Shown: positions 2,068-48,907 of the stretch, one piece after another
Layout: each line of letters opens with the position of its first letter
Numbering within the stretch: the stretch's first letter is position 1
NCBI RefSeq assembly: GCF_003991155.1
Contig: NZ_CP031293.1
Source of the DNA: Escherichia coli
GTDB lineage: Bacteria > Pseudomonadota > Gammaproteobacteria > Enterobacterales > Enterobacteriaceae
Strand: one strand, 5' to 3'
DNA: 64,000 bases
Position numbers and translations under genes: made by a program
The notes under the pieces: model-generated
Told to the model about the DNA's origin: nothing
What the model saw: the letters and a program-made list of their open reading frames with translations, nothing else
The model's database searches: none

Positions 2068-2535
2068 TCATCGAAGGCATTGCGTCCTGATGTATTCCTG
2101 AAGCGTTCTCAGTGCTGTTTGGTCGCGGATAATTCCGTCCCGGATACCGAGAACGTTTCGTCCAGCAACTGGAGAGAGTTCGACGGTGGCATCATTGCCC
2201 ATGCCGGAGGCGCTGGAGGTTTCGGCTGAGGATGGCACAGGGCATTTTCCTTTGACGAGCACCCTGCCACCATTATCAAGCTTGCGCCGAAGAGCATCAT
2301 TTTCAGCTTTCGCATCAGCTAACTCCTTCGTGTATTTAGCATCAAGTGCATCAGCAGTACGCTGGCGCTGCTGCATGTCAGTAATGGTGGCAGTCGCCTG
2401 CTTCAGCTCACTGACTTTTTTATCACGCTGTTCTTTGTAGGCGATGGCGTTATCACGGTAATGATTAACAGCCCATGACAGGCAAACGATGATGCAGATA
2501 ACCAGAGCGGAGATAATCGCGGTTACTTTGCTCAT
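2068..2535 (-). CDS. Rz: Rz i-spanin
   Basis: [30 protein letters not shown]..., N-terminal TM anchor, lambda Rz-like, immediately after endolysin. Confidence 0.85.
2109..2315 (-). CDS. Rz1: Rz1 o-spanin lipoprotein, embedded in Rz in +1 frame
   Basis: [22 protein letters not shown]... lipobox plus proline-rich PPAPPAW segment, lambda Rz1-like, wholly inside Rz. Confidence 0.7.
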
Positions 2536-3008
2536 ACCTCAATCTCTCTGACCGTTCCGCCTGCTTCTTTGAATTTTGCAATCAGGCTGTCAGCCTTATG
2601 CTCGAACTGACCATAGCCAGCGCCCGGCAGTGAAGCCCAGATATTGCTGCAACGGTCAATTGCCTGACGAATATCACCGCGATCAATCATCGGTAAAGCG
2701 CCACGTTCTTTAATCTGTTGCAATGCCACAGCGTCCTGGCTTTTCGGAGAGAAGTCTTTCAGGCCAAGCTGCTTACGATAGGCATCCCACCAACGGGAAA
2801 GAAGCTGGTAACGTCCGGCTGCTGTTGATTTGAGTTTTGGGTTTAGCGTGACAAGTTTGCGAGGGTGATCGGAGTAATCAGTAAATAGCTCTCCGCCAAC
2901 AATGACGTCATAACCATGATTCCTGGTTTTCTGTCGTCCGTTATCAGTTCCCTCTGACCACGCCAGCATATCGAGGAACGCCTTACGTTGATTATTGATT
3001 TCCACCAT
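2532..3008 (-). CDS. R: Endolysin R (lambda-type lytic transglycosylase)
   Basis: 158 aa, [24 protein letters not shown]..., same length and N-terminus as lambda R. Confidence 0.9.
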
Positions 3009-3748: not shown

Positions 3749-4372
3749 CTAACGTGTGACCGCATTCAAGATATTGTCTGCGATTGACTCTTCCTTGTGG
3801 CATTGCACCACCAGAGCGTCATACAGCGGCTTAACAGTGCGTGACCAGGTGGGTTGAGTAAGGTTTGGGATTAGCATCGTTACAGCGCGATATGCGGCGC
3901 TTGCTGGCATTCTTGAATAGCCGACACCTTTGCATCTTCCGCATTCTTTCTCAACAACTCTCCCCCACAACTCTGTTTTGGCAATATCAACCGCACGGCC
4001 TGTACCGTGGCAATCTCTGCATCTTGCGCCCGGCGTCGCGGCACTACGGCAATAATCCGCATAAGCGAATGTTGCGAGCACTTGCAGTACCTTTGCCTTA
4101 GTATTTCCTTCGAGCTTTGCCACACCACGGTATTTCCCCGATACCTTGTGTGCAAATTGCATCAGATAGTTGATAGCCTTTTGTTTGTCGTTCTGGCTGA
4201 GTTCGTGCTTACCGCAGAATGCAGCCATACCGAATCCGGCTTGTGATTGCGCCATCCCCATAGCAGCCATCACATCAGTACCGGAAAGGGAGTCAGAAGC
4301 CGTGGCCCGTGGTGAGTCGCTCATCATCGGGCTTTTTGGCGAATGAAATTTAGCTACGCTTTCGAGTCTCAT
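3749..4372 (-). CDS. Q: Late-gene antiterminator Q
   Basis: 207 aa with Cys-rich zinc-binding motif (CRDCHGTG...CGRCKG), positioned between nin region and PR'. Confidence 0.85.
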
Positions 4373-5034
4373 GCGCCTTCTCCCTGTACCTTAATCAATG
4401 TGAGGTTTCCGCAGAACACTGCTCCGGTATCGATATACATTTGGTTGGCAAACTTGAGTGGTTTCACTGCTGGCGTATGACCAAAGATGAACGTGTCCGC
4501 TCCCTTGATTTCTTTTACGATCCCGTCTTGTGAGTTGCTGATTCGTTCGCGGTTCCAGATTACCTGCTGATGAACAACTGGCTTTCCAAACTCGTATTCG
4601 TCACAAGGATAATCGGCGTGGCAGATAACATATTTTTTACCTTTGCTCACCAGTTCAATGATTAACGAAAGTTCATCTGCTTTATGGGCAAGAGCTTTAG
4701 CCAGAATTTCTTTGTCGTAATCGAGATTAAAGAACCAGCCACCGCCATTAAACAGCCAGTGATTGACGTTTCCACGCTCTGATAAGCCATCAATCATCAT
4801 TTGCTCATGGTTTCCACGTACAGCTCTGAACCAGGGGAATGTGATTAATTCCAGGCATTCGACGTTCTCTGTACCGCGATCGACCAAATCGCCAACCGAG
4901 ATAAGCAGGTCTTTTTTGATGTCGAATCCTATCGTCTCCAGTTTTTTCATCAGGTTCGTGTAGCATCCGTGCAGATCGCCAACTACCCAAATATTCCGGT
5001 ATTTGCTGCCATCAATTCTTTCGTAATAGCGCAT
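4369..5034 (-). CDS. ninI: Ser/Thr protein phosphatase (NinI)
   Basis: [25 protein letters not shown]... GDLVDRG, GNHE metallophosphatase motifs; start taken at internal Met matching lambda PPase. Confidence 0.85.
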
Positions 5035-5218
5035 CTCTTTCACTCCATCCGCGATGAACCATGAGAACGTCGTTGACGATGGCGTGCATTTTCCCGTCTT
5101 TATCATCAACGTATTTTCTTACCGTGCCGCGACTACATTTCAGTCTGCGTGCCACTTCTGTCTGGTTTCCGTATGCTTCAACGAGCATGTCTGGAATGGT
5201 TTTTACTGAGAACGTCAT
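5012..5218 (-). CDS. ninH: NinH
   Basis: 68 aa [37 protein letters not shown]..., lambda NinH-like. Confidence 0.8.
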
Positions 5219-5826
5219 GCGGCCTCACTTCTGCTATTTCGCAGGTCTTTGAGTTTCTGTTGGTACTCTGCCTTGATCGCCTTGCACTCTTCGACAGTCC
5301 AGCGATGGCGGTTATGGTTTGATTCGATTTCGTCTACTGCTTCCTGCCCGATGCGATTAATCAGTTCGACGCGATACGGAACGAGATTTCCGCTTTTGTG
5401 CTGGTTGCACACCACGCATTGCTTGTGAATATTGCGTTCATCAAATCGGAGTTGAGGTGCCGCAGCAGTTGTCCGGTAATGTCCGGCATCCCACTGAGCA
5501 GACGTGAGCGTTCCGCACGAGATACATGGTAAGTCGCGGTCTCTTTCTCTGATGAAGGCGTTTACGGCTTGTTGGGCTTGTTTAATCCAGTAACTGCGGG
5601 GCTTTAAGGCGAGTTTTCGAATCTTCAGTTTATCTTTCTGTTTCTGCTCCTCTCGTCGTCGTTTCTTCTCTGCTGCTTTTTCCGCTTTTTCGCGTTCTTT
5701 ACTTCGTCGTTCGAGTGCTATCTTGGTTCCACACTCTGGAGAGCACCACCACTGATTAGCGAATGCAGGGTGAAACCATTCCCGACATTCATCGTTTTTA
5801 CATCGTCTTCGCGCTGGTTTAGCCAT
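5215..5826 (-). CDS. ninG: NinG (Rap) recombination-associated protein
   Basis: 203 aa [22 protein letters not shown]..., Cys-rich, lambda NinG-like. Confidence 0.85.
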
Positions 5827-6360: not shown

Positions 6361-6533
6361 TTCCTCGCACGATGTCTTAGCCACCGGATATCCCACAGGT
6401 GAGCCGTGTAGTTGAAGGTTTTTACGTCAGATTCTTTTGGGATTGGCTTGCGTTTATTTCTGGAGCGTTTCGTTGGAAGGTATTTGCAGTTTTCGCAGAT
6501 GATGTCGGTGATGCTTCGTCGCTGTCGTCTCAT
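6357..6533 (-). CDS. ninE: NinE
   Basis: [58 protein letters not shown], lambda NinE-like; start at internal Met. Confidence 0.7.
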
Positions 6534-7057
6534 GCCGCCCTCCTGACGCCCTGCCCGATCGCCATCAATGCCGCTTTGGATACGGTAGTAAACATCCGTC
6601 GAGGATTGATGAACGGTCGCCAAATCAGCAGCATGGAACCTTTGCTGTTTCCCTTCTTCTCCAGCCCTGTCGATGGTTCGATAAAATTAATCCGTCCATC
6701 AGTGATGATGCGAACTTCGTCAATACTCTCCAGAGCCTTGCTGAACCATCCGACAGACATATCCTCTGGCACAAGCATCACTACCGTCTGTCGCTGTTGT
6801 ATGCACTGCTCAGCGGCTTTTTCCACCCACGGCCTGATATTGCTGTACGGTGGGTTATTCCAGATTGCACCGTGGCTTACCCACTCAGAATTGAGCGCGT
6901 CGTCGGCCTCAGTTAGCCAGTGAGCACACAGAGCATTTTTGTCGCTCGCTGCCGAATCCAGCCAGAATCCAAACTCAATATCCAGTGCATCAAAAAGCCA
7001 AAGCGGCGTTTGCCAGCAGTCCTTGTCGTGTGCTGGCGTATTTGATTTGATAGTCAT
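6530..7057 (-). CDS. Phage DNA N6-adenine methyltransferase (Dam-like)
   Basis: NPPYS catalytic motif; [25 protein letters not shown]...; ATGA overlap with ninB stop. Confidence 0.7.
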
Positions 7058-7497
7058 GCAGCCCGATCTCCCCATCTCGCTTTCCACTCCAGAGCCAGTC
7101 TCGCTTCGTCTGACCACTTAACGCCACGCTCTGTACCGAATGCCTGTATAAGCTCTAATAGCTCCGCAAATTCGCCTACACGCATCCTGCTGGTTGACTG
7201 GCCTATTACCACAAAGCCATTCCCGGCAAGGTTAGGAACAACATCCTGCTGCTTTAATGCTGCGGTAAACACACACTTCCAGCTTTCTGCATCCAGCCAA
7301 CGCCCATGCCATTCAACCTGACGAGAGACGTCACCTAAGCAGGCCCATAGCTTCCTGTTTTGGTCTAAGCTGCGGTTGCGTTCCTGAATGGTTACTACGA
7401 TTGGTTTGGTTGGGTCTGGAAGAATTTTCTGGATAGCTTGAATGGCGTTCTGCTGATGGATGGGGCTTCTTAGTTCAAACGTTAGTTTCCTCACCAT
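7054..7497 (-). CDS. ninB: NinB recombination protein
   Basis: 147 aa, near-identical to lambda NinB over most of its length as recalled. Confidence 0.85.
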   Translation of the reverse strand: MVRKLTFELRSPIHQQNAIQAIQKILPDPTKPIVVTIQERNRSLDQNRKLWACLGDVSRQVEWHGRWLDAESWKCVFTAALKQQDVVPNLAGNGFVVIGQSTSRMRVGEFAELLELIQAFGTERGVKWSDEARLALEWKARWGDRAA

Positions 7498-8252: not shown

Positions 8253-9629
8253 TCATACGTCCGCCCCTTGTGCATATCGTCTGCCACGCGCAGCAGGCGC
8301 ATTTGATGCTGTGCAAATCTGTCTGGCTTCATCCTGGTCACATGCAACAAAGTGTCCGTTACAGAACCGCTGGTAAACCGTACCAAGTGAGCCAAAACGG
8401 TTTTTCGTCACGATGATTTCAGCAAATGGCGCGGCGCTACTGTTCTCGTCATATACCGCTTCCCGATAGAGCATGATGATTGAGTCTGCGTCCTGCTCAA
8501 TGCTTCCTGAATCACGCAAATCTGCGTTTGTCGGGCGTTTGTTTGGTCGCTTCTCAACATCGCGCGAAAGCTGACTCAGGGAGATAACAGGCGTTTTCAG
8601 GTCTTTCGCCATCGCCTTCAGGCTTCCGGAGATGTGAGCAATTGCGAGGTCGTTGCGGTCTGCTTTCGGCTTCTCAATCAGGCCAAGATAATCCGCCATG
8701 ATTAGAGACAGGTTTGGATTTTCCTGTTTATGCCGTTCTGCGATTGAGCGTATTTCTTCGACCGATAACCGCGAGGCATCGACTACCCATACATCCAAAT
8801 CTGCAAGCTGACTCATGCCGTTAGCAACACGCGCCCAGCCTTCGTCATCCATCGATGCAGGATTTCGCAGTACGCTAACCGACATCCTCCCGGCGTTGGC
8901 AATGCTTCGCTCTGCAATCTGCAATGCGCTCATTTCCATCGAGAAAATCAACACTCCGCGCCGGACGTCAGAACCGGGAATAACGCGGCTTGCAACGCCT
9001 TCAGCAATCTTCAGCGCCAGCTCGGTTTTCCCCATACCAGGACGAGCGGCGATAATCACCAGGTCTTCCGCGTTCATCCCTCCGGTGATGGCGTCAAGTT
9101 CTTCGATTCCGGTCTTCAGGGTATCTGACTCTTCTCCGTTCCTCAGACGCCTGTCAAGCGTGTCAGTGTAGTCAGTGATGATTTCCCCTAACCGTACAGG
9201 TTTAACCTCGTCACGGGGCTTTCTGATGGCTGAAAGACGCTTTACAAGCTCGTCCATCGCCTGACTCGATGTATCGATGGTTCCGCTCTGAATTGGTTCA
9301 CGCATTTCATCCATGATTTCCAGCACCAGACGGCGGTGATAGTTATCCGCGACCATTCCGGCATATCCTTTCAGGTTTGCGGCACTCGGGCAGTTTTTGC
9401 TGGTCATCAGGATTGACGTGAAATGCTCCTCTCCGCACGCCTCGGCAACCATCAGCGCGTCGATTAGGTTTCTGTTTCTCGCCTGCTTGCGGATAACCTC
9501 GAAGGCTTTCCGGTAGAGCGGAATTGAAAACGCTTCCGGCTCCAGTGTTGCCAGAACGTCGCTGGCGGTTGGAGTTAATCCACCAATCAGCAGACCGCCG
9601 ATAACGCTCGCTTCGATATCCTGTCTCAT
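8253..9629 (-). CDS. Replicative DNA helicase, DnaB family (phage P-gene position)
   Basis: Walker A GMGKTE, DnaB C-terminal motifs ([23 protein letters not shown]). Confidence 0.85.
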
Positions 9630-10573
9630 GCAATCCCCCTGTCTGCAAACTTCCCTTCCCGTACTCCCGTTAACGAATCTTCCCTCAGCAGGTAATCAAA
9701 ATCTGCCGTCCATCCCGTGTCGTTGTCTCCGAAGTAAAACGGCTTGGCCTGATGCACAAACGCCCTGACATACGCTCTGAAACCGTCCACGTTTGGCGTT
9801 TTCAGTTGCGGGATGATTTTCTTCAGGCGGCGTTTGCGTTTCTCGTTGACCGCAACAGCGTGTGGCAGTCTGTCACCGACTTCGGTGTTGTAAGCGTTCA
9901 GGAAGGATTCGTAGTCGATTCGTTCTGCCTTGCGACGTTCAGGTTTAACCTGCCCATCGCCTCCCCCATTGGGGGGTAGGGGGGTATTATTTATATTCTT
10001 GTTAATACCTTCTTGTTCATGATGTGCGGTTGTTTGTGCGGCTTCATGTGCGCTTTCATGTGCGGCATGTACGCTGAATGCCGCGCCATTACTGGCTTCA
10101 TCATGTGCGGCATCATGTGCGGTTGTTTGTGCGGCTTCATGTGCGGGTGAACTGTCCATTTTTTGAGCATATTCATGGTAATTTGTGATGGTTATCACAC
10201 GACCTTTTTGCTTCTCCCCATCAATGGAGATCATCCCCTCTTTCACAAAAACCTGAAGCATCCGCTCAACCTGATCACGGCTTGCCGGCTTGCCATGCCT
10301 GTCGCATAACTGAAGACCTAAATCAGCTGCTGTCACAACCAGTTGACCGGGTTGCAGATGCCATTCATGACCTTTGAAATTCGCTTTGTATGGCTTTCTG
10401 GCGGCATTCAGGAGAAGGTTTTCCCACAGGGTGCGAAGATAAACATCTTTCGCCCATGACTGTTTCAGAATGCTCCGGTACAACGGAATGTAACCAGTTT
10501 TCTGGTTCTCCATCCTGTTGCTCCTGCGCTCGTGTGCGGCGCTGAAATCGTAGATTTTTGCTGTATTGCTCAT
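9626..10573 (-). CDS. Replication initiator (O-like replisome organiser)
   Basis: Position between cII-side genes and helicase; contains internal nucleotide iterons; start overlaps helicase-side gene boundary. Confidence 0.65.
10022..10145. repeat. Iteron cluster (putative phage origin) inside the O-like gene
   Basis: 31-bp perfect direct repeat ATGTGCGGTTGTTTGTGCGGCTTCATGTGCG at 10022-10052 and 10115-10145 plus several TCATGTGCGG units; adjacent AT-rich tract at 9985-10010. Confidence 0.5.
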
Positions 10574-10870: not shown

Positions 10871-11164
10871 TTAAAATTCCATTTGTATTTGATCAGAACG
10901 CTCGGTTGCCGCCGGGCGTTTTTTATTGGTGAGAATCGAAGCAACTTGTCGTGCCAATCGAGCCATATCGTCGTCAACGACGCCCCATTCAAGAACAGCA
11001 AGCAGCATTGAGAACTTTGGAATCCAGTCCCTCTTCCACCTGCTGATCTGCGACTTATCAACTCCCACAGCTTCCGCTGTCTTCTCAGTTCCAAGCATTG
11101 CGATTTTGTTAAGCAACGCACTCTCGATTCGTAGAGCCTCGTTGCGTTTGTTTGCACGAACCAT
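10871..11164 (-). CDS. cII: Transcriptional activator CII
   Basis: MVRANKRNEALRIESALLNKIAMLGTEKTAEAVGVDKSQISRWKRDWIPKFSMLLAVLEWGVVDDDMARLARQVA..., near-identical to lambda CII as recalled. Confidence 0.9.
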   Translation of the reverse strand: MVRANKRNEALRIESALLNKIAMLGTEKTAEAVGVDKSQISRWKRDWIPKFSMLLAVLEWGVVDDDMARLARQVASILTNKKRPAATERSDQIQMEF

Positions 11165-11221
11165 ATGTAAGTATTTCCTTAACAAATAAGAAGTTATGCG
11201 CATCAACTTATGCGCGTTGTA

Positions 11222-11266
11222 TTCCCGCATTTCGGCGGGAATGAGGACCATGACTGTTAAAGAGCA
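11222..11266 (-). promoter_or_regulatory. nutR (boxA GCTCTTTAAC + boxB hairpin)
   Basis: On minus strand boxA at 11256-11265 then boxB TCCCGC-CGAAAT-GCGGGA at 11222-11241, between cro and cII. Confidence 0.55.
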
Positions 11267-11538: not shown

Positions 11539-12189
11539 ATGAAAACTCAATTGATGGGAGAGCGCATTCGCGCTCGGAGAAAAGAACTCAAGATCAGGCA
11601 GGCCGCACTTGGAAAGATGGTCGGCGTGTCTAATGTTGCCATATCTCAGTGGGAACGCTCTGAGACAGAGCCAAATGGAGAGAATCTTCTCGCCCTGGCT
11701 AATGCGTTGAAGTGTTCCCCTGACTATCTGATGAAAGGAGAGGAAAGTCTTTCAAACATTGCCTATCACAGTAGGCATGATCCAAGAGGGTCATACCCTC
11801 TGATTAGCTGGGTGAGCGCAGGATGCTGGATGGAAGCTGTAGAACCATATCATAAGCGTGCAATAGATAACTGGTACGATACAACCGTAGACTGTTCAGA
11901 AGATTCGTTTTGGTTGGATGTGAAGGGAGACTCAATGACGGCTCCGGCCGGTCTCAGTATCCCTGAAGGAATGATAATACTCGTCGATCCTGAAGTAGAG
12001 CCGCGTAACGGGAAACTGGTAGTTGCAAAGCTCGAAGGAGAAAACGAGGCAACTTTCAAGAAGTTAGTTATTGATGCAGGCAGGAAGTTTCTAAAACCAC
12101 TTAACCCACAATATCCGATGATCGAGATCAACGGAAACTGCAAAATCATCGGCGTAGTTGTCGATGCAAAACTAGCAAACCTTCCATAA
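11539..12189 (+). CDS. cI: CI repressor (HTH + S24 LexA-like peptidase domain)
   Basis: N-terminal HTH (VGVSNVAISQWERSE), C-terminal S24 motifs (GDSM, K in VVAKLEGE). Confidence 0.9.
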   Translation: MKTQLMGERIRARRKELKIRQAALGKMVGVSNVAISQWERSETEPNGENLLALANALKCSPDYLMKGEESLSNIAYHSRHDPRGSYPLISWVSAGCWMEAVEPYHKRAIDNWYDTTVDCSEDSFWLDVKGDSMTAPAGLSIPEGMIILVDPEVEPRNGKLVVAKLEGENEATFKKLVIDAGRKFLKPLNPQYPMIEINGNCKIIGVVVDAKLANLP

Positions 12190-12795: not shown

Positions 12796-13095
12796 ATGAC
12801 AGTAGTCATTACATATCTAGCTGACGATAACGCCAGAAATCGCCGCAGAGCACGCAGGCAGGCTCAACGTGAACAGGCAATGCAAGAACAGCGACTGGCG
12901 CGAAAGATTGCGCTAAAGCTCTCTGGTTGCGTCAGAGCAGACAAAGCAGCATCACTCGGAAGCCTTCGCTGCAAGAAGGCAGAAGAAGTCGAGAGTAAAC
13001 AGAACCGTATTTACTACCGCAAGCCACGCAGTGAAATGGGTGTGACTTGTGTTGGTCGCCAGAAAATGAAATTAGGCAGCAAACCACTTATTTGA
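12796..13095 (+). CDS. N: Antitermination protein N
   Basis: Arg-rich motif NARNRRRARRQAQ; C-terminus RIYYRKPRSEMGVTCVGRQKMKLGSKPLI resembles lambda N. Confidence 0.8.
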   Translation: MTVVITYLADDNARNRRRARRQAQREQAMQEQRLARKIALKLSGCVRADKAASLGSLRCKKAEEVESKQNRIYYRKPRSEMGVTCVGRQKMKLGSKPLI

Positions 13096-13106
13096 GAGGA
13101 ATTAAT

Positions 13107-13730
13107 ATGTCATCAATCCGCTTAACTACGAGAATGAAAGAGAAAATCGCTCGTAACGCTTTAATTAAGTCTGGGGTTTTCACTGAACTTGAAGAAGTAA
13201 CAAAGTTAAAGAACCAGCTTGCACTTGACGCCAGAGTTATTGCGTTTGGCGGTAAAAAGAAAACTGAGGAAGTGGATCAGTTATCATCCAGGTTAGTAGC
13301 TATAAGTGAAGAACTTGAAAAGATGGGATGTTCATTTTACTCATACGATGTTCGTTCTACTTCAATTTATCTGACTGTATCTGGCAGAAGGGTTGGATGG
13401 CATTCATATGGGAAAGACGGCAACGGCGAAGATATATTGCTCCCTACTCCAACCAAAGATAAATGCATGTTTGATGCAGAACACGAAATAACAAAAAGGT
13501 TTGATGAAATCTGCGCATTGCAACAAAAACTTGAAGCCAAGAAAAAGGATATCGAATCAAATGTATGGGCTGCTTTGAACTCAGTCACAACAGTTAAGCG
13601 ACTTATTGAAGTTTGGCCTGAAAGCAAAGAATTGCTACCAAAAGAAGCAGACAAAGCAAGTACAGCACTTCCTGCTTTACGGGTAGAAGATTTGAATAAG
13701 ATGATTGGACTTCCTTCCGAGTCCGCATAG
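13107..13730 (+). CDS. Hypothetical phage protein (207 aa) in the ral/sieB-equivalent position
   Basis: ORF with GAGGA RBS directly after N; no family recognised. Confidence 0.5.
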   Translation: MSSIRLTTRMKEKIARNALIKSGVFTELEEVTKLKNQLALDARVIAFGGKKKTEEVDQLSSRLVAISEELEKMGCSFYSYDVRSTSIYLTVSGRRVGWHSYGKDGNGEDILLPTPTKDKCMFDAEHEITKRFDEICALQQKLEAKKKDIESNVWAALNSVTTVKRLIEVWPESKELLPKEADKASTALPALRVEDLNKMIGLPSESA

Positions 13731-13864
13731 TCGGCCTTTATTTTTGGCACTAACAACAGAATAAACACTGCACTGTGTATTCATTCCAACGAGTGAATAC
13801 ACGGAGCAATGTCGCTCTTAACTAAACAGGAGCCGACTTGTTCTGATTATTGGAAATCTTCTTT

Positions 13865-13891
13865 GCCCTCCAGTGTGAGGGCGATTTTTTT
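13865..13891 (+). terminator. tL-like intrinsic terminator
   Basis: GCCCTC-CAGTGT-GAGGGC followed by GATTTTTTT, 12 nt upstream of next start codon. Confidence 0.5.
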
Positions 13892-13903
13892 GATGGAGGA
13901 TAT

Positions 13904-14872
13904 ATGAGTGAAGTAACAGATTTAGTTGTTATTGAAAAAGCAAATGCAATGACTGTATTTCAGTCTGCCGACCAGATTGAAGAAATCCTTCAAAGGGTTG
14001 AACGTGAAGTTATGTCCTTTGTGCCTGATATCACAACGGCAAAGGGCAGAAAGGAGATCGCTTCTCTGGCGTATAAAGTTGCGCAGACGAAAACATATCT
14101 CGATGGTCTTGGCAAAGACCTTGTTGCTGAACTGAAGGAAATTCCAAAGCTAATTGATGCCAACCGCAAGACAGTGCGCGATCGCCTTGATGAGCTGAAA
14201 GCCAAGGCACGCCAGCCTCTTACTGATTATGAGGAAGAACAGGCGCGGATTAAAGCCGAAGAAGAAGCTAAGGCAGCAGCTGAAGCTCTCGCAAAGCAAA
14301 TTGAGTCTGACCATGAAATAGCTATTTTGATGGATCGCGAATTTGACCGCCAAAGAGAAGAGGCAAGACTCAAAGCGGAGCAGGAAAAGCGAGAGCATGA
14401 AGAACGCTTAAAAAGAGAAGCTGAAGAGAAAGCCAGAGCAGAAGCCGAAGCAAAGGCAAAAGCCGAAATTGAAGCAGCAGCAAGGCGAGAAGCAGAAGCT
14501 AAGGCCGCAGCGGAACGTGCAGAGCGTGAACGCATTGAAGCCGAGCAACGAGCACAGCGCGAAGCAAAAGAGGCAGCAGAACGAGCTGAAAGAGAAAAGC
14601 AGGCGGCAATTGAAGCAGAACGCCGAAAAGCACAGGAGGAGGCTGAACGAATCCGGCGCGAGGCTGAAGCAAAAGAGCAAGCCAGAATAGCAGAAGAAAA
14701 AAGAATCAAGGACGAAGAAGAGCGTAGAGCAAAGGATAAAGCTCACCGGAAAGAAGTAAATAACAAAATACTTGCTGACCTTATCAAGGTTGGCGCATCA
14801 GAAGATGTTGCTAAAAATATCATAACAGCCATCGTAAAAGGCGAAGTATTCGCAACAAAAATAACCTACTAA
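13904..14872 (+). CDS. Hypothetical protein with long charged E/R/K/A-rich single alpha-helix segment
   Basis: N-terminal about 110 aa domain, about 170 aa low-complexity AEAK/ERAE repeats, short C-terminal domain; GGAGG RBS. Confidence 0.5.
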   Translation: MSEVTDLVVIEKANAMTVFQSADQIEEILQRVEREVMSFVPDITTAKGRKEIASLAYKVAQTKTYLDGLGKDLVAELKEIPKLIDANRKTVRDRLDELKAKARQPLTDYEEEQARIKAEEEAKAAAEALAKQIESDHEIAILMDREFDRQREEARLKAEQEKREHEERLKREAEEKARAEAEAKAKAEIEAAARREAEAKAAAERAERERIEAEQRAQREAKEAAERAEREKQAAIEAERRKAQEEAERIRREAEAKEQARIAEEKRIKDEEERRAKDKAHRKEVNNKILADLIKVGASEDVAKNIITAIVKGEVFATKITY

Positions 14873-15418: not shown

Positions 15419-16126
15419 ATGGATTTGAACAAATTCGATGAACCATTCAGCCCTGAAGATATCGAATGGCGAATACAGCAAAGCGGTAAAACACGCGATG
15501 GCAAGGTGTGGGCTATGGTGCTGGCTTATGTCACGAACCGGGCAATCATGAAACGCCTGGACGATGTTTGCGGCAAAGCAGGATGGCGCAATGAATACCG
15601 CGATATTCCCAACAACGGCGGAGTTGAATGCGGCATATCAATCAAGATTGATTCCGAATGGGTAACCAAATGGGATGCTGCTGAAAACACGCAGGTAGAA
15701 GCCGTCAAAGGTGGTCGTTCCGGTGCAATGAAGCGTGCTGCCGTTCAATGGGGAATCGGTCGGTATCTGTATAACCTTGAGGAAGGTTTCGCACAAACAT
15801 CTCTCGATAAAAAGCAGGGATGGCACAGGGCAAAACTGAAGGATGGAACAGGATTTTACTGGCTCCCTCCATCGCTGCCGGGATGGGCAATCCCAGCATC
15901 AGATAACAAACCATCACCAGAAAATACCAACCAGAAATCTCCATCGGTTGACTGCGAACAAATCCTGAAAGACTTCAGCGATTATGCATCAACAGAAACT
16001 GACAAGAAAAAACTCATCGAGCGTTATCAGCGTGACTGGCAATTAATGGCTGGCAACGAGGAGGCGCAGGCTAAATGCGTTCAGGTAATGAACATCAGAG
16101 TTAACGAACTAAAACAGGCGGCATAA
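15419..16126 (+). CDS. Putative single-strand annealing protein (Rad52/Sak-like)
   Basis: 235 aa immediately upstream of ssb in the recombination module; family assignment from memory. Confidence 0.45.
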   Translation: MDLNKFDEPFSPEDIEWRIQQSGKTRDGKVWAMVLAYVTNRAIMKRLDDVCGKAGWRNEYRDIPNNGGVECGISIKIDSEWVTKWDAAENTQVEAVKGGRSGAMKRAAVQWGIGRYLYNLEEGFAQTSLDKKQGWHRAKLKDGTGFYWLPPSLPGWAIPASDNKPSPENTNQKSPSVDCEQILKDFSDYASTETDKKKLIERYQRDWQLMAGNEEAQAKCVQVMNIRVNELKQAA

Positions 16127-16633
16127 ATGGCAAGCAGAGGCGTAAATAAGGTGATTATCCTTGGTCGGGTAGGACAAGACCCGGAAGTTCGATACTCACC
16201 ATCAGGAACAGCGTTCGCTAACCTGACAATAGCCACGTCAGAACAATGGCGAGATAAAAATACTGGCGAGCAAAAGGAATTAACTGAATGGCATCGTGTT
16301 GCTGTATCCGGGAAACTGGCTGAGGTCGTGGGGCAGTATGTGAAAAAAGGTGATCAGATTTATTTCGAGGGAATGCTGAGAACCAGAAAGTGGAAAGACC
16401 AGTCAGGGCAAGACCGTTACACAACCGAGGTTCATGTCGGAATTAATGGCGTGATGCAAATGCTTGGCGGCATTGGCGACAGCAAACAACAAGCAGCCAG
16501 CAGGCAATCACAGAAGCCACAGCAGCAATCATCACCAGCACAACACAACGAACCTCCGATGGATTTTGACGACGATATACCCTTTGCACCAGTAACTCTC
16601 CCCTTCCCTCGTCACGCTATTCACGCAATTTAA
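16127..16633 (+). CDS. ssb: Single-stranded DNA-binding protein
   Basis: OB-fold N-terminus [34 protein letters not shown]..., Gly/Gln-rich linker, DFDDDIPF acidic tip followed by extra 15 aa. Confidence 0.9.
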
Positions 16634-19691: not shown

Positions 19692-19883
19692 ATGACCGAT
19701 ACCAGCCTGATTCCTGAGAAAGAAGTGATGAACAAGCTCGGTGTTTCATCACGTCAGACAATCTGGAACTATACCAAACGGCACGGATTTCCGAAGCCAG
19801 TCAGAACCCACCCCAAATCATACCTTCGTGAAGCTGTTGAAGGGTGGATTCTTAACGGTGGCGTTAATCAGAAATGCTCCTGA
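19692..19883 (+). CDS. xis: Excisionase / AlpA-family DNA-binding protein
   Basis: 63 aa small HTH protein overlapping the 3' end of int on the opposite strand. Confidence 0.7.
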   Translation: MTDTSLIPEKEVMNKLGVSSRQTIWNYTKRHGFPKPVRTHPKSYLREAVEGWILNGGVNQKCS

Positions 19884-21042
19884 TGTGCCAGAACAATTTA
19901 TCAGCGTGAAGCTCATACGCTTTGCGCTGAGCCTCTATCCAGTCGTGTTTATTGTATACGGACATTATCCCGCCAAGTTCATGACCGAGCATTCGCTCAG
20001 TAACATGAGGCTCGACATTCATCTCGGACAGACGTGTAACAAGCGTTCTTCTGAAATCGTGTGTTCGCCAGTAACCTAGATCCATCCCTCCCCTTATTCT
20101 ATTTACGAATCGGTTGGCTGCAGCGATGCTGATCGGTTTGTTTATGTCTTCTCCAGGGAAAAGAACATCATTGTACGTTGTCATGGCCTTTTCGAGGAAA
20201 GGCTTAATTTGTTCGAAGATTGGACGGCGGATAGCATTACCCATCTTGCTATGCTCTTTCGGTACGGTCCATACGTTTTCCAGCAGGTCAAATTCTGTCT
20301 TTTTTGCCAGCCTAAGCTCTGAGAGCCTCGCCCCCCACAGCATAAGCATCTGATGAAGTAGCTTATTTGACGTAGACGCACGGCTTCTTTCAATAGCAAG
20401 CCAAATCTTAGCCAGTTCGTGATACGACAGTACACGATCCCCTACCTCAGCGCGGGAGCCGAAGTCCCTTGGTTGGATGCTCATAATTGCGCAACTATCT
20501 ATCAACTGACGCCGCATGCACCAACTTATTGCTGATCTTAGTTGACTTAGCACCTGCCTTGCTCGGCGTGGATTATCTCTTTCTTCTTCGGTAAGCAGGT
20601 CAACCCATTGCTTAACCGTGATAGAAGATGCCGGACGATTAGGGAAGGCGTCATGCATGCGCTTCATAACCGTTGATCGGTAAAGTGCCTGGGTCTTTTC
20701 TCTGAGAGTTGTAGAGACGTAGTTGTCGAACCAGTAGTCGAGACACTGGGCGACCGTCATGGAGTTCTCCACCTTCTCTTCAAAATAAGTGCGTGGATCC
20801 GTTCCTGAGAAATAGAGCTTTCGCAAGTCAGCAGTGATCTGTCTGGCATCCTTCAAAGACATGGATGGGTATCGACCAAGCCCAAGTCGATTAGGCTTGC
20901 CATGCCAGCGATAGCGGTACTGGAACTGGATGACCCCCTTCGGTGAAATTCGTACGCTGAGGCCATCGGCATCAGCCACTTCTTGTGGGCCCGAATATGG
21001 TTTACCATAAATAGTACGAAGTTTTGTGTCGCTTATAGCCAT
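19864..21042 (-). CDS. int: Tyrosine integrase
   Basis: 392 aa; C-terminal catalytic region HDFRRT...LGHELGG...YNKH. Confidence 0.9.
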   Translation of the reverse strand: MAISDTKLRTIYGKPYSGPQEVADADGLSVRISPKGVIQFQYRYRWHGKPNRLGLGRYPSMSLKDARQITADLRKLYFSGTDPRTYFEEKVENSMTVAQCLDYWFDNYVSTTLREKTQALYRSTVMKRMHDAFPNRPASSITVKQWVDLLTEEERDNPRRARQVLSQLRSAISWCMRRQLIDSCAIMSIQPRDFGSRAEVGDRVLSYHELAKIWLAIERSRASTSNKLLHQMLMLWGARLSELRLAKKTEFDLLENVWTVPKEHSKMGNAIRRPIFEQIKPFLEKAMTTYNDVLFPGEDINKPISIAAANRFVNRIRGGMDLGYWRTHDFRRTLVTRLSEMNVEPHVTERMLGHELGGIMSVYNKHDWIEAQRKAYELHADKLFWHIRSISD

Positions 21043-21223
21043 AAATAATATTTGGTACGCTCAGAAATAATGGTTTGGTACACATCTGGTACACAATATC
21101 ACATGGACAACAGCGCACAGTAAACAACTATATTTGACGTTCGTAGACATACTCAGGTGAAAAAATGGTTGTTTTTCGAGTTATAACAGACAGTTAATTA
21201 ACTACAGTGGACAATGCTAGACA
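21043..21223. promoter_or_regulatory. Prophage attachment-site region (arm-type repeats; core not resolved)
   Basis: TGGTAC(G/A)C repeats at 21053, 21076, 21087 and GACAATG repeats near 21205-21225, between int and sbcB. Confidence 0.35.
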
Positions 21224-22648
21224 ATGACAGACACAGATAAACAACCTACCTTCCTCTTTCACGATTACGAAACCTTTGGAACGCACCCCGCGTTAGATCG
21301 CCCTGCACAGTTCGCAGCCATTCGCACTGATAACGAATTCAATGTCATCGGCGAACCCGAAGTCTTTTACTGCAAGCCCGCGGATGACTATTTACCCCAG
21401 CCTGGAGCAGTATTAATTACCGGTATTACCCCGCAGGAGGCACGGGCGAAAGGAGAAAACGAAGCCGCGTTTGCCGCCCGTATTCACTCGCTTTTTACCG
21501 TACCGAAGACCTGTATTCTGGGCTACAACAATGTGCGTTTCGACGACGAAGTCACACGCAACGTTTTTTATCGTAATTTCTACGATCCTTACGCCTGGAG
21601 CTGGCAGCATGATAACTCGCGCTGGGATTTACTGGATGTTATGCGTGCCTGTTATGCCCTGCGCCCGGAAGGAATAAACTGGCCTGAAAATGATGACGGT
21701 CTACCGAGCTTTCGCCTTGAGCATTTAACCAAAGCGAATGGTATTGAACATAGCAACGCCCACGATGCGATGGCTGATGTGTACGCCACTATTGCGATGG
21801 CGAAACTGGTAAAAACGCGTCAGCCACGCCTGTTTGATTATCTCTTTACCCATCGTAATAAACACAAACTGATGGCGTTGATTGATGTTCCGCAGATGAA
21901 ACCCCTGGTTCACGTTTCCGGAATGTTTGGGGCATGGCGTGGCAATACCAGCTGGGTGGCACCGCTGGCGTGGCATCCTGAAAATCGCAATGCCGTAATT
22001 ATGGTGGATTTGGCAGGAGACATTTCGCCATTACTGGAGCTGGATAGCGACACATTGCGCGAGCGTTTATATACCGCAAAAGCCGATCTTGGCGATAACG
22101 CCGCCGTTCCGGTTAAGCTGGTGCATATCAATAAATGTCCGGTACTGGCCCAGGCGAATACGCTACGCCCGGAAGATGCCGACCGACTGGGAATTAATCG
22201 TCAGCATTGCCTCGATAACCTAAAAATTCTGCGTGAAAATCCGCAAGTGCGTGAAAAAGTGGTGGCGATATTCGCGGAAGCCGAACCGTTTACGCCTTCA
22301 GATAACGTGGATGCACAGCTTTATAATGGCTTTTTCAGTGACGCCGATCGTGCAGCAATGAAAATTGTGCTGGAAACCGAGCCGCGTAATTTACCGGCAC
22401 TGGATATCACTTTTGTTGATAAACGAATTGAAAAACTGTTGTTCAATTATCGAGCGCGCAACTTCCCGGGGACGCTGGATTATGCCGAGCAGCAACGCTG
22501 GCTTGAGCACCGCCGCCAGGTCTTCACGCCAGAGTTTTTGCAGGGCTACGCTGATGAATTGCAGATGCTGGCACAACAGTATGCCGATGACAAAGAGAAA
22601 GTGGCGCTGTTAAAAGCGCTTTGGCAGTACGCGGAAGAGATTGTCTAA
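21224..22648 (+). CDS. sbcB: Exodeoxyribonuclease I
   Basis: 474 aa, matches E. coli SbcB throughout except first about 9 residues (MTDTDKQP here). Confidence 0.9.
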   Translation: MTDTDKQPTFLFHDYETFGTHPALDRPAQFAAIRTDNEFNVIGEPEVFYCKPADDYLPQPGAVLITGITPQEARAKGENEAAFAARIHSLFTVPKTCILGYNNVRFDDEVTRNVFYRNFYDPYAWSWQHDNSRWDLLDVMRACYALRPEGINWPENDDGLPSFRLEHLTKANGIEHSNAHDAMADVYATIAMAKLVKTRQPRLFDYLFTHRNKHKLMALIDVPQMKPLVHVSGMFGAWRGNTSWVAPLAWHPENRNAVIMVDLAGDISPLLELDSDTLRERLYTAKADLGDNAAVPVKLVHINKCPVLAQANTLRPEDADRLGINRQHCLDNLKILRENPQVREKVVAIFAEAEPFTPSDNVDAQLYNGFFSDADRAAMKIVLETEPRNLPALDITFVDKRIEKLLFNYRARNFPGTLDYAEQQRWLEHRRQVFTPEFLQGYADELQMLAQQYADDKEKVALLKALWQYAEEIV

Positions 22649-22690: not shown

Positions 22691-22918
22691 TCAGGCTTTT
22701 TGAACGGTGATGCTCCACGTAGCATCACCAATCTGCTGATAATCGGTGATGGCATGTCCTTCTTCTGCCGCCCACTGTGGGATTGCTTCAGTTGCCTGGG
22801 TGCAATCAAACTCAATTACCAACTCATCGCCGCTGGCCATTTCTGCCAGTGCTGCTTTTGCTTCTATGAGTGGAAACGGACAGACCTGCGTCACCACATC
22901 CAGCTTTTTAATCGCCAT
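22691..22918 (-). CDS. yeeD: TusA-like sulfur carrier protein
   Basis: 75 aa with CPFP motif. Confidence 0.85.
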   Translation of the reverse strand: MAIKKLDVVTQVCPFPLIEAKAALAEMASGDELVIEFDCTQATEAIPQWAAEEGHAITDYQQIGDATWSITVQKA

Positions 22919-22931
22919 CTTTACACCTTAC

Positions 22932-23990
22932 TTAATTTGCCGCAGCAGTTGCCAGTCGCGCCTTACGCTGCGGTCGAACATACACAAGCCAGGACGCAGT
23001 CCAGACTCCGAGAATCATAAATACAAGGCCAATCCAGCCCTGCCAGGTCATCATTGCAGTCATTACCAGTCCATTACCGATAGAGCAACCACCTGCAATG
23101 CTGGCACCGAAGCCCATCAGTACACCACCTAACCCGCTACGTAATGTTGTTTGTGCATCAGCAGCGCGAACGCGGAACTCACGGCTCGCTTTGGCGGCAA
23201 TAAATGACCCCACGAAGATCCCTAACACCAGGAAAACGCCCCAGTTAATGTATTTCACGTCACCCGCGACCAGAAATTGCAGAATATTGGCCGTTGGGGA
23301 AGTGATGCCTAACCCAAACATACGTCCGGTTGCTTCACTCAGGGGCCAGGCTAAAAGCGCAATCAAACCGATGAGTACAGCTGTGACAAAGGGATGCCAG
23401 CGTTTTTCAAACATAATATGAGCGATCCCAGTTCGGCGCGGCGGTAAGGTCGCGACTTTGAGTTTTGGCTTCTTCAACTCTTTCATCACCACCCAGAGCG
23501 TTATCACCAGCAAAACGGCAACCAACGGCCACACAGACAAATTAAAAGTCTCAGCAATAGAGTTATGTTCAGTACTGTAGTGCTGCAAGGTTTGATTTAA
23601 ACCACTGGCATGTGGAGAACGCATCACCGCACTCATCACCATATAAGTGAAAAGCGCGATCCAACTGCCGATCAATCCCTCACCCGCGCGATACCAGGTC
23701 CCGGTAGCACATCCACCCGCCAGAACAATTCCCAGCCCGAAGATATACCCACCGATAACAGTGCCAAGCCACGGGAACGCCCCGGCTTCGTAAGTCAGTA
23801 GACCCGCCTGAATTAACGCAAAAACCCCCACGCTTTGTACCGAAATTGCAATCAGCAGGGCGTAAAACATGCGATTATTTTTCGCGATATACATATCGCG
23901 AAAACCACCTGTCAGGCAAAAACGCCCACGCTGCATGACAAATCCCAGCAGAGCACCACAAATTAGCCCGCTTAATATCATTGAAAACAT
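22932..23990 (-). CDS. yeeE: Thiosulfate transporter family membrane protein
   Basis: 352 aa polytopic membrane protein, E. coli YeeE. Confidence 0.85.
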   Translation of the reverse strand: MFSMILSGLICGALLGFVMQRGRFCLTGGFRDMYIAKNNRMFYALLIAISVQSVGVFALIQAGLLTYEAGAFPWLGTVIGGYIFGLGIVLAGGCATGTWYRAGEGLIGSWIALFTYMVMSAVMRSPHASGLNQTLQHYSTEHNSIAETFNLSVWPLVAVLLVITLWVVMKELKKPKLKVATLPPRRTGIAHIMFEKRWHPFVTAVLIGLIALLAWPLSEATGRMFGLGITSPTANILQFLVAGDVKYINWGVFLVLGIFVGSFIAAKASREFRVRAADAQTTLRSGLGGVLMGFGASIAGGCSIGNGLVMTAMMTWQGWIGLVFMILGVWTASWLVYVRPQRKARLATAAAN

Positions 23991-27593: not shown

Positions 27594-28019
27594 CCGTTAT
27601 CTCCTGATACACCTTAGATCTATAAGGCTACGCTAGCGTATCAAAACTGACAATTCATTCTATGAATGAAATCGAAACTGTTAGCAAATATACAATTGCC
27701 TGATGTGCTCCGCTTATCAGTCCTACAAAAACATCAATACATTGAATTTAGGCAATATTTGTAGACCTGATAAGGCATTCACGCCGCATCCGGCAGGAAC
27801 AAAGCCCACTTTAGTTACAGAACACAATGTTCTTGAGGGTTTTAAAGACATATTTTCACGATTACTTTTTTAACGTAGCCACTCCTGGCCCCCTCCTTTC
27901 CCCGCTCATTCATTAAACAAATCCATCGCCATAAAATATATAAAAAAGCCCTTGCTTTCTAACGTGAAAGTGGGTTAGGTTAAAAGACATCAGTTGAATA
28001 AACATTCACAGAGACTTTT

Positions 28020-28070
28020 ATGACACGCGTTCAATTTAAACACCACCATCATCACCATCATCCTGACTAG
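28020..28070 (+). CDS. hisL: his operon leader peptide
   Basis: MTRVQFKHHHHHHHPD, seven consecutive His codons. Confidence 0.85.
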   Translation: MTRVQFKHHHHHHHPD

Positions 28071-28134
28071 TCTTTCAGGCGATGTGTGCTGGAAGACATT
28101 CAGATCTTCCAGTGGTGCATGAACGCATGAAAAA

Positions 28135-28170
28135 GCCCCCGGAAGATCACCTTCCGGGGGCTTTTTTATT
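28135..28170 (+). terminator. his attenuator terminator
   Basis: GCCCCCGGAAG-ATCAC-CTTCCGGGGGC followed by TTTTTTATT. Confidence 0.8.
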
Positions 28171-28215
28171 GCGCGGTTGATAACGGTTCAGACAGGTTTA
28201 AAGAGGAATAAGAAA

Positions 28216-37974: not shown

Positions 37975-39381
37975 TTAATCCAGCCATTCGGTATGGAACA
38001 CACCTTCTTTATCAATACGCTTATAAGTATGCGCACCAAAATAGTCACGCTGTGCCTGGATCAGGTTCGCAGGCAGAACAGCAGCACGGTAGCTGTCGTA
38101 ATAGGCAACCGCTGCGGAGAAGGTCGGAACCGGAATACCGTTCTGTACTGCATAAGCAACGACATCACGCAGCGCCTGCTGGTAGTCATCGGCAATTTGC
38201 TTGAAGTACGGAGCCAGCAGCAGGTTAGCGATCTGCGGATTTTCGGCATAAGCATCGGTGATTTTCTGCAGGAACTGCGCACGGATGATGCAGCCAGCAC
38301 GGAAAATCTTCGCGATTTCGCCGTAGTTCAGATCCCAGTTGTACTCTTCAGACGCAGCACGCAGCTGAGAGAAGCCCTGGGCGTAAGAAACGATTTTGCC
38401 CAGATACAGCGCACGACGAACTTTTTCGATGAACTCAGCCTTGTCGCCTGCTGGCTGTGCTTGCGGACCAGAGAGAACTTTAGATGCGGCAACACGCTGA
38501 TCTTTCAGAGAAGAGATATAACGTGCAAACACAGACTCGGTAATCAGCGACAGCGGTTCGCCGAGATCCAGCGCGCTCTGGCTGGTCCATTTACCGGTAC
38601 CTTTGTTAGCCGCTTCATCCAGGATCACATCAACCAGGTAGTTACCGTCTTCATCTTTTTTGGTGAAGATATCTTTGGTGATGTCGATCAGGTAACTGCT
38701 CAGTTCACCGTTATTCCACTCGGTAAAGGTCTGCGCCAGTTCTTCGTTGGTGAGGTTCAGGCCACCTTTAAGCAGAGAATAGGCTTCAGCAATCAGTTGC
38801 ATATCACCGTATTCGATACCGTTGTGAACCATCTTCACATAATGGCCTGCGCCATCGGCACCAATATAGGTAACGCATGGCTCCCCGTCTTCAGCTACTG
38901 CGGCGATTTTGGTCAGGATTGGTGCAACCAGTTCATAGGCTTCTTTCTGCCCACCAGGCATAATAGAAGGACCTTTCAGCGCGCCTTCTTCACCACCGGA
39001 GACACCGGTACCAATGAAGTTAAAGCCTTCGGCAGAAAGTTCACGGTTACGACGAATGGTGTCCTGGAAGAAGGTATTGCCACCATCAATGATGATGTCA
39101 CCTTTATCGAGATATGGTTTGAGGGAATCAATAGCAGCATCCGTGCCTGCACCTGCTTTCACCATTAACAGGATGCGACGAGGCGTTTCCAGAGATTCAA
39201 CAAACTCTTTCACCGTATAGTAAGGAACCAGTTTCTTGCCTGGATTTTCGGCAATCACTTCTTCCGTCTTTTCACGGGAACGGTTGAAAATAGAGACGGT
39301 ATAACCACGGCTTTCGATGTTGAGCGCAAGGTTGCGCCCCATCACTGCCATACCGACGACGCCGATCTGTTGCTTTGACAT
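37975..39381 (-). CDS. gnd: 6-phosphogluconate dehydrogenase (decarboxylating)
   Basis: E. coli Gnd, 468 aa. Confidence 0.9.
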
Positions 39382-40939: not shown

Positions 40940-41698
40940 TTATTTATGCGCAAACAATTGCATTAGTTTTGAGATTTTTCTGATAATGATAGCAATTTTC
41001 CAATTTACATTATGGTTTTTCATAACTTCTACAATTTCCTTTGTACTTGATATCGCGTTATCAATTCTGGTACTTTCCCCACCCAATCTCATCTTTACAA
41101 ATACTTGAGGAACATAAATAACTTTAATATCATCACGTTTCAAAATCCTGACCATCTGATCATAGTCTGCAGCAATCCTATAGGATAAATCAAAATATCC
41201 ATCGTCTTTATATAATTCCCTCCTCATATAGAAAGATGGATGCGGTGGTGCCCAGCCTAATGATAGCTTAGAACGTTTAAAAGGACCACTACGCCAGTAT
41301 CGTTTGATTATATCAGTTTGGTTTTTTTCGAAAAAAACCAAATCACCGTATACAACATCCGCTTTTGTCTCATGGAAACGGCTTACAATAGTTTCAATAA
41401 TATCAGGTCTTGCTAAAAGGTCATCAGAATGAACGAATCCAATAATATCTCCCGTAGATAAATTTATACCTTTATTTAAAGCATCATAGATACCGTTATC
41501 GCTTTCTGATAGACATTTGGTTACTCTTGTTGATACTTCGTTAATTAGTTTTAACGTATTATCTGTAGAACCACCATCAATAATTATATACTCTATATCT
41601 TTATAGGTTTGCAACTCTATTGACTCTAAAGTATCCCTTAAAGTCTTTTCACTATTATAAGTCACTGTAATAATACTGACTTTCATTTTAACATCCAA
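40940..41698 (-). CDS. Glycosyltransferase family 2
   Basis: VSIITVTYNSEKTL...IIIDGGSTDNT GT2 signature. Confidence 0.75.
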   Translation of the reverse strand: MDVKMKVSIITVTYNSEKTLRDTLESIELQTYKDIEYIIIDGGSTDNTLKLINEVSTRVTKCLSESDNGIYDALNKGINLSTGDIIGFVHSDDLLARPDIIETIVSRFHETKADVVYGDLVFFEKNQTDIIKRYWRSGPFKRSKLSLGWAPPHPSFYMRRELYKDDGYFDLSYRIAADYDQMVRILKRDDIKVIYVPQVFVKMRLGGESTRIDNAISSTKEIVEVMKNHNVNWKIAIIIRKISKLMQLFAHK

Positions 41699-41769
41699 TA
41701 ATAATCATAATTAAATAACGTCAGTACAGCATTACGAATAATAATGTTGCATTAGTATCCAGCATCATT

Positions 41770-43170: not shown

Positions 43171-43622
43171 TTAAAATAATTTTTTGTGTACTGATGAACT
43201 GAGGAATTAGCTAACAATTCGGCTATATCGAACCAATTGTAAGTACTATGTTGTAGTGTTGGATAGTTAATTTGATGTGGCATCAAACTAATCTCATATC
43301 CGTGTACGACATAATGAGTTGAAAAACAAGTCCCAGAAAAATTGTCGCTGTAGAAATGTTCATAAATCCCAAGAAATTTTGCTTCATTAATGCTAATTTG
43401 AACACCCAATTCTTCTAAAGTAACTCTTTTGAATGCGTTCTCGAAAGACTCATCTTTAAGAATCCGTCCCCCCGGCACAAACCAATAATTTTGTGCTGGA
43501 CGATTAAGGCGCTGACCAAGCAGCGCCTTACCATCTTCGTTTCTTATAATAAGGTCTATCGAGATTAGTGGAGTATGTTCAACTATTGATTTAAATAACT
43601 CTGTTTCTAATCTCTTGTTCAA
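43167..43622 (-). CDS. gmm: GDP-mannose mannosyl hydrolase (Nudix)
   Basis: Homolog of E. coli Gmm/NudD (RPAQNYWFVPGGR). Confidence 0.8.
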   Translation of the reverse strand: MNKRLETELFKSIVEHTPLISIDLIIRNEDGKALLGQRLNRPAQNYWFVPGGRILKDESFENAFKRVTLEELGVQISINEAKFLGIYEHFYSDNFSGTCFSTHYVVHGYEISLMPHQINYPTLQHSTYNWFDIAELLANSSVHQYTKNYFK

Positions 43623-43624
43623 TA

Positions 43625-44590: not shown

Positions 44591-44593
44591 ACT

Positions 44594-45715: not shown

Positions 45716-45725
45716 AAATAACCTC

Positions 45726-46733: not shown

Positions 46734-46801
46734 TTTTTGTTTTCATATATATAGATAACAATACAGTAAGCAATGAAATGGATGATTATAATTGTTTCAA
46801 T

Positions 46802-47818: not shown

Positions 47819-47838
47819 ACTTTAATAGCTCCAATACC

Positions 47839-48906: not shown

Positions 48907-48907
48907 T

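Follow-up and report, generated by a model that had tools for sequence, protein, structure and literature searches.

A lambdoid prophage with a phage 2851-type integration module replaces the 5' end of sbcB in Escherichia coli

Introduction

Phages 2851 and Sf101 integrate at the 5' end of sbcB, the gene of exodeoxyribonuclease I (ExoI), and the core of their attachment site has been published as CGTAATCGTGAAA (PMC4159516). In the case of Sf101, this integration was demonstrated by PCR (PMC4159516). Shiga toxin (Stx) phages are also concerned, sbcB being a routine locus for the typing of Stx2c phages in O157:H7 (PMC3519850, PMC4645166). The same 13 bp are labelled in GenBank as 'duplication due to insertion of stx2c phage' (phage 1717) and 'attP; prophage attachment site (type 2851)' (HK544). 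In the literature on this site and core, the original 2851 paper (Strauch et al. 2008) aside, no explicit statement was found that the phage rebuilds the start of sbcB. The present analysis deals with such a junction in a stretch of 64,000 nucleotides of an Escherichia coli genome (contig NZ_CP031293.1, assembly GCF_003991155.1). The whole stretch is called the window hereafter. A lambdoid (non-Stx) prophage with a phage 2851-type integration module has its int-side junction there. This junction is termed attR here (attL in some papers).

Examples of gene-restoring attachment sites inside a protein gene, treated in Campbell's reviews of prophage insertion, are the icd sites of phage 21 and e14. 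As in sbcB, the crossover falls inside the open reading frame (ORF), a diverged copy of the gene end is borne on the phage arm, and few residues are altered. In icd and in tRNA-gene sites, however, the 3' end is swapped and the host promoter and start are kept, whereas in sbcB the 5' end is swapped, hence promoter, leader, start and N-terminus would all be phage DNA. This replacement of a 5' end is the less common form, and its principle is textbook. The Stx1 phage in yehV/mlrA and phi10403S in Listeria comK have likewise a site-specific integration within a chromosomal protein-coding gene. There, the target gene is off until excision, whereas here the full reading frame is rebuilt at integration.

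The explanation retained, which is considered very probable, is a 2851-type integration in sbcB in which the phage arm restores the 5' end of the gene and the hybrid gene would be functional. What is seen here belongs to a known integration system: core, site and integrase are all published or annotated and, judged from sequence, the 5'-end patch follows directly from that of attP. The new point is modest and implies no new kind of biology: the surrogate start is kept throughout the integrase family and in different host genera, and its codons next to the core change at third positions only. This matters for annotation, and for recombination genetics and genome engineering where the status of sbcB counts: sbcB is a standard Stx-phage insertion locus used for the typing of O157:H7, about 11% of complete E. 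coli genomes have the junction, and carrier strains would make an exonuclease I whose N-terminus is encoded by the phage and which is expressed from phage DNA.

Structure of the junction

The junction is made of the following features (positions in the window).

19864..21042, minus strand: int, tyrosine integrase of phage 2851 type (392 aa), identified by ORF, Pfam and PHROG; its transcription is directed away from the attachment site
21043..21223, no strand: int-proximal arm of attP, the part of the junction beside sbcB; a near-identical stretch is found in HK140 and HK544
21224..22648, plus strand: sbcB hybrid ORF (474 aa), exodeoxyribonuclease I
21224..21256, plus strand: phage-supplied 5' end of sbcB, ATG and 10 codons (MTDTDKQPTFL), found in free-phage attP
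21257..21269, no strand: 13-bp core TTTCACGATTACG, identical to the published one
21270..22648, plus strand: host-derived rest of sbcB, 95-98% identity to unoccupied E. coli loci

The gap between the start of int and that of sbcB is 181 bp (21043-21223). An earlier note, made from the sequence of the window, had put it at about 180 bp and had seen no tRNA at the junction; ARAGORN finds indeed no tRNA or tmRNA in the whole 64-kb window.

The N-terminus of the hybrid SbcB is MTDTDKQPTFLFHDYETFG. The unoccupied loci (CY708 and Rb-23) and the ExoI chains of the PDB have (M)MNDGKQQSTFLFHDYETFG, also written MMNDGKQQSTFLFHDYETFG, in agreement with the K-12 N-terminus given in the earlier note. The 11 residues MTDTDKQPTFL stand in place of the native 12 codons MMNDGKQQSTFL. 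The same note held that the rest of the protein matches K-12. This is right as to the alignment, which runs end to end with the ExoI chains 1fxx and 4jrp, but four substitutions are present past residue 11 with reference to the crystallised K-12 ExoI (N37, V114, A287 and A450, hybrid numbering). Close homologues of the hybrid SbcB carry Pfam PF00929, PF08411 and PF26016, and the protein qualifies as a full-length ExoI with exonuclease, SH3-like and C-terminal domains.

The motif FHDYETFG is kept in the hybrid SbcB, and the residues FHDYE, for which the core codes, are unaltered, the Asp/Glu pair being D14/E16 in hybrid numbering. In K-12 numbering this pair is D15/E17, which we take, from the ExoI structure literature, to be the metal-binding pair of ExoI (DEDDh Exo I motif). 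Metal binding by D15/E17 would explain why the core stretch is invariant and why it is a dependable target.

Comparison of the attachment sites

The sites aligned were: attB (CY708 and Rb-23), the junction of the window, attP (HK140, HK544 and Sf101) and the reciprocal junction (EC195 and NCTC9038). From the four-way alignment and the listing of junctions, attB, attP, attL and attR share these 13 bp only. The comparison with unoccupied loci, which the earlier note had advised, thus sets the core at 21257-21269. The note expected it at the 5' end of sbcB or immediately before it, in a stretch that ended at 21260, i.e., within the core as now defined; the core lies in fact within the coding sequence (CDS). 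It begins 36 nt into the native sbcB CDS and covers native codons 13-17, F13-H14-D15-Y16-(E17), which are codons 12-16 of the hybrid; it encodes F-H-D-Y-(E). The phage-derived coding stretch before the core has 33 bases.

Up to the core, window and attP have the same sequence: ...GGACAATGCTAGACA ATG ACA GAC ACA GAT AAA CAA CCT ACC TTC CTC. On the right of the core, the window is host sbcB, i.e., the right side of attB. The 60 bases before the core in attP of HK140, HK544 and Sf101, including ATG and the 10 codons, are identical to those of the window or differ by 1 base, and in HK140 and HK544 the entire arm back to the start of int is a nearly exact match. In these three free-phage sites the core is followed by unrelated phage DNA, and the attP reading frame meets a stop 4 codons past the core (peptide MTDTDKQPTFLFHDYAQYP). 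The reciprocal junction (attL) of EC195 and NCTC9038 has the native ATGATGAATGACGGTAAGCAACAATCTACCTTTTTG and the core, adjoining dacD. Its native codons are ATG ATG AAT GAC GGT AAG CAA CAA TCT ACC TTT TTG, then come the core and phage DNA, with a stop after 20 codons. The similarity of the arm (21043-21223) to the native dacD-sbcB intergenic region is limited to a few short words.

The site has thus the properties of a gene-restoring attP, i.e., a crossover inside the ORF and a phage-borne substitute end in frame. The suggestion of the earlier note that the phage supplied a substitute 5' end and ribosome-binding region to sbcB is upheld by the presence of the same segment in free-phage attP; its use in transcription and translation would follow from the geometry.

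The proposed course of events is the following. An arm-binding tyrosine integrase would recombine attP with the identical 13-bp core inside native sbcB. The int-proximal arm of attP would thereby deliver a surrogate sbcB 5' end in frame with the core, i.e., ATG and 10 codons with 181 bp upstream. The resulting gene would be a 474-aa hybrid sbcB, whose first 11 residues, translation-initiation region and, by necessity, promoter would be phage DNA. The native promoter and the first 12 codons would end up at a distance of roughly one prophage length, where they would be joined to phage DNA in a frame that terminates after 20 codons.

Occurrence in E. coli genomes

A query of 618 bp across the junction was compared with 5426 complete E. 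coli genomes. Matches are found in 5422 of them. In about 4840 genomes the match begins abruptly near position 21240 of the window; these are unoccupied loci. The whole int-to-sbcB junction is present at 98-100% identity in 580-581 genomes (11%). At least 76 nt of the int end are found in the same number of genomes (580-581) as the phage-type arm with the hybrid 5' end, and none of the 5426 genomes has the phage-type 5' end ATGACAGACACAGATAAACAACCTACCTTCCTC without an integrase end or a prophage remnant. The earlier note had named a prophage-free strain with the identical 5' sequence as the counter-example to look for; no such strain is among these genomes. The 474-aa and 475-aa forms of SbcB are prophage footprints, not alleles. 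In RefSeq, the 1425-nt sbcB CDS is intact in all six carriers sampled, including the three in which int is truncated by insertion sequence (IS) elements or has an internal stop. It must be added that two of the places matching the junction query are plasmid records, not chromosomes.

Conservation of the replacement start

A scan of IMG/VR with the integrase gives relatives, down to 59% identity, with an FHDY-coding core located 212-214 nt from the start of int. An in-frame ATG, TTG or GTG stands 10-11 codons before the core in these relatives, and also in two loci described below (Pantoea anthophila and an Enterobacteriaceae metagenome-assembled genome, MAG). The N-termini of the relatives are MADTDKQPTFL, MNNSEQQPTFL, MKNESNQPTFL, MKNDCEQPTFL, MKNDLVQPTFL, MKNDREQLTFL and MSNEIQKTFL. 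Among the integrase relatives, the host sbcB that follows also differs in sequence. When the arms are aligned, codons 2-6 vary freely, while Q7, T9, F10 and L11 change at third positions only. On the basis of this pattern and of the family-wide conservation of the start, it is argued that selection acts on the phages to leave ExoI intact. Integrases with 56% identity or less have no FHDY-coding motif upstream of int; they presumably target other sites.

The native SbcB N-termini of Enterobacteriaceae are hypervariable before (P/S)(T/G/S)FLFHDYETFG, thus the residues that are swapped are naturally unconstrained. Most orthologues have 474 aa, as the hybrid. None of the natural N-termini is an exact match to the phage segment, the closest being MSDDERQPTFL.

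Genome contigs were also scanned for a donor sbcB. The 28-mer CAACCTACCTTCCTC followed by the core has matches in Pantoea anthophila and in the Enterobacteriaceae MAG, at the following places.

L008 4480-4800: Pantoea anthophila LMG 2558, scar with a decayed integrase remnant and a TTG start in the phage position
L009 3280-3560: Enterobacteriaceae MAG, scar with a decayed integrase remnant and a TTG start in the phage position

Both were rejected as native donors, since a 5' remnant of an integrase and a homologous arm lie directly upstream. The Pantoea scar has a stop codon in the integrase remnant and arm-type repeats upstream of sbcB. From their sequence, both loci are read as relics left outside Escherichia by related elements that target sbcB; the hybrid sbcB is still open in them.

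Integrase and attachment arm

Int has the Pfam domains Arm-DNA-bind_3 (PF13356, E 1e-17) and Phage_integrase (PF00589, E 7e-17), and belongs to PHROG_1 (integrase, E 9e-74). The catalytic motifs GARLSE, HDFRR, LGH and VYNKH, read by eye from the translation, give R239, H328/R331, H354 and Y363. With these catalytic residues and an N-terminal arm-DNA-binding domain, Int is an arm-binding tyrosine recombinase (lambda/P4-like). Over 392 aa, its identity is 98% to the Int of Stx2c phage 1717 and 99% to that of HK140. The DNA of the int region also matches 2851, Sf101, mEp234, HK544 and many Stx prophage records.

The Stx2c-converting phages 2851 and 1717 are thus alike in Int (98% to 1717 at the protein level; 98.6% for the int-region DNA to the 2851 record), and also in the AlpA-type neighbour of int, the 13-bp core and the insertion within the start of sbcB; in the window, too, the far side of the prophage presumably adjoins dacD, as in EC195 and NCTC9038. 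They differ in that the prophage of the window is another mosaic: its early and lysis genes are P22/HK-like, and the interval from Q to the lysis genes leaves no space for stx. Sf101, HK140, HK544 and mEp234 have the same int/attP module, their attP including ATG and the 10 codons (with one change, D3G, in Sf101). The difference is that these are free or inducible phage genomes, while the window shows 21 kb from the right-hand side of a prophage, with its int-side junction.

Three kinds of features are located near or within the arm.

19692..19883, plus strand: AlpA-family excisionase/regulator (PHROG_66 'excisionase and transcriptional regulator', E 2e-8)
21053-21060, 21076-21083 and 21087-21094, plus strand: three arm-type, putative integrase binding repeats TGGTACRC, found as sequence matches
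21095..21103, minus strand: candidate extended -10 (TGtGATATT) of a putative int promoter, from a lenient hexamer scan

In the records of Sf101, HK544 and the WGPS phages, the excisionase/regulator gene is assigned to the AlpA family. In the window it is convergent with int (plus vs. minus strand) and overlaps its 3' end by 20 nt (19864-19883). Given this convergence, early-left transcription would pass antisense through int toward sbcB.

The motif TGGTACRC has just three matches in the 64-kb window, all inside 42 bp (21053-21094). Two further copies are found in the other attP arm of HK140 and HK544, and in integrase relatives with as little as 59% identity the GTAC cores of the arm repeats keep the same positions. 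The layout is as expected for arm-type sites, and the repeats are likely to be Int arm-type binding sites.

The transcription of int, directed away from attP, requires an int promoter in the arm as well, and 21043-21223 thus probably holds it. Of the non-coding blocks of the arm, the one with the highest conservation, CAATATYRCATGGAC, contains the candidate TGtGATATT; this block is kept across 12 family members. The standard promoter scan reports nothing at this place (21095..21103).

Predicted expression of the hybrid gene and rival explanations

The arm is all the sequence found upstream of sbcB; any promoter and ribosome-binding region used by the hybrid gene must thus lie in it. From this geometry, transcription and translation of the hybrid sbcB would be driven by the phage arm. 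The hybrid gene would yield an active exonuclease I, and lysogeny would thus give no sbcB-null cell. Several points weigh against this explanation: (i) no sigma-70 promoter above the scan threshold is present in 21043-21223, and a lenient scan gives weak candidates only (TGGACA-19 nt-TATATT at 21104-21134 and TGaAAAAAT at 21158-21166); (ii) there is no canonical Shine-Dalgarno sequence 5-10 nt before the hybrid ATG; (iii) the third-position-only pattern beside the core could partly reflect a constraint of the integrase on its core-type site and not translation; (iv) the second junction of the prophage is beyond the left end of the window, the dacD-side junction being observed in the related carriers EC195 and NCTC9038; (v) expression and activity of the hybrid gene are deduced from its sequence.

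The first two of these points would be expected if integration silenced or strongly down-regulated sbcB, i.e., if the arm had no adequate promoter or ribosome-binding site (RBS) and lysogens were partial sbcB mutants. The orientation of the upstream neighbour goes in the same direction: int runs opposite to sbcB, which makes read-through improbable as long as the prophage is repressed. However, the native gene is no better endowed. It has no canonical Shine-Dalgarno sequence either, no strong consensus promoter is found near it in its upstream region, and promoter and terminator scans of the arm, of the wider region and of the native locus return nothing usable. The native locus being equally poor in such signals, the scans cannot discriminate. 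Moreover, the start codon and the third-position-only codons are kept over about 40% integrase divergence and in several host genera, and the ORF is intact in carriers whose prophage has decayed, both of which are unexpected for a stretch that is not translated. Silencing of sbcB is thus held to be unlikely. A further proposal, that the arm is an expression cassette evolved by the phage to take over the control of exonuclease I, is a doubtful one. The sbcB promoter would be embedded among the arm-type sites, divergent from the int promoter, and, upon induction, antiterminated early-left transcripts running through xis, antisense to int, could also reach sbcB. If so, the level of ExoI would track the state of the prophage, e.g., to protect the 3' single-stranded DNA substrates of Erf/SSB recombination of the phage, and the conservation across Enterobacterales would reflect a regulatory role and not merely the avoidance of an sbcB-null phenotype.

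The origin of the 5' segment could also be viewed otherwise. SbcB N-termini vary widely between genera and the phage version resembles the 474-aa pattern (e.g., MSDDERQPTFL), so that the N-terminal difference might be put down to allelic variation or gene conversion, with the prophage junction located upstream in the intergenic region. The probability of this is practically nil. The exact 33-nt segment and the arm upstream of it are found in free phage genomes, the reciprocal junction of lysogens keeps the native 36 nt and the core, and the phage-type 5' end never occurs without the int end among E. coli genomes; the four-way att comparison refutes it. The likeness to natural orthologues in length and pattern (M-x-D-x-x-x-Q-P-T-F-L) would also agree with a recent pick-up of an enterobacterial sbcB 5' end by imprecise excision, the segment then not being a long-kept part of attP, and the 28-mer with the core found in Pantoea anthophila and in the Enterobacteriaceae MAG seems at first to provide the donor. 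Those matches are nevertheless scars of related elements and not native sbcB starts, and the segment is co-linear in integrase relatives down to 59% identity, thus it is old. A recent pick-up is accordingly judged improbable, while an ancient capture of an sbcB 5' end is compatible with 2851-type integration and restoration of sbcB by the phage arm.

Other features of the window

Positions 1-21042 of the window are the right-hand part of the non-Stx lambdoid prophage, which is a mosaic. The best E. coli genome match covers 67% of this 21-kb part, and none is higher among complete genomes. The following genes are located in it.

127-621: terS (terminase small subunit)
2068-2535: spanin
2532-3008: endolysin
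3749-4372: Q
4369-5109: NinI
5215-5826: NinG
6530-7117, minus strand: orphan methyltransferase ORF (PADLOC 'orphan methyltransferase' models, E 1e-19)
8253-9629: DnaB-like helicase
9626-10573: O-like replication protein
10871-11251: cII
11539-12189: cI
13047-14872, plus strand: two early-left ORFs (227 and 340 aa), low GC (0.40), PHROGs of unknown function
15419-16126: Erf
16127-16633: SSB

The ORF at 6530-7117, in the Nin region, probably encodes a DNA methyltransferase of the phage. PADLOC gives no defence match for the two early-left ORFs, its sole match in the prophage being this orphan methyltransferase; the two ORFs at 13047-14872 may be moron/accessory genes.

On the host side, tsuB/tsuA (yeeD/yeeE, 22691-23990) are present in the window just downstream of sbcB. 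They are absent in Rb-23, NCTC9038 and 30345_1#186 (with an IS200 at this position in 30345_1#186), i.e., a presence/absence polymorphism beside the attachment site. The yefM-yoeB toxin-antitoxin pair, located between yeeZ and the his leader in NCTC9038, is missing in the window, where 27594-28176 contains no ORF of more than 56 aa. Further on, a block of low GC (0.25-0.38) extends from about 41000 to 52100, between gnd (37975-39381) and a probable galF, which is followed by colanic-acid genes. This block is the O-antigen gene cluster.

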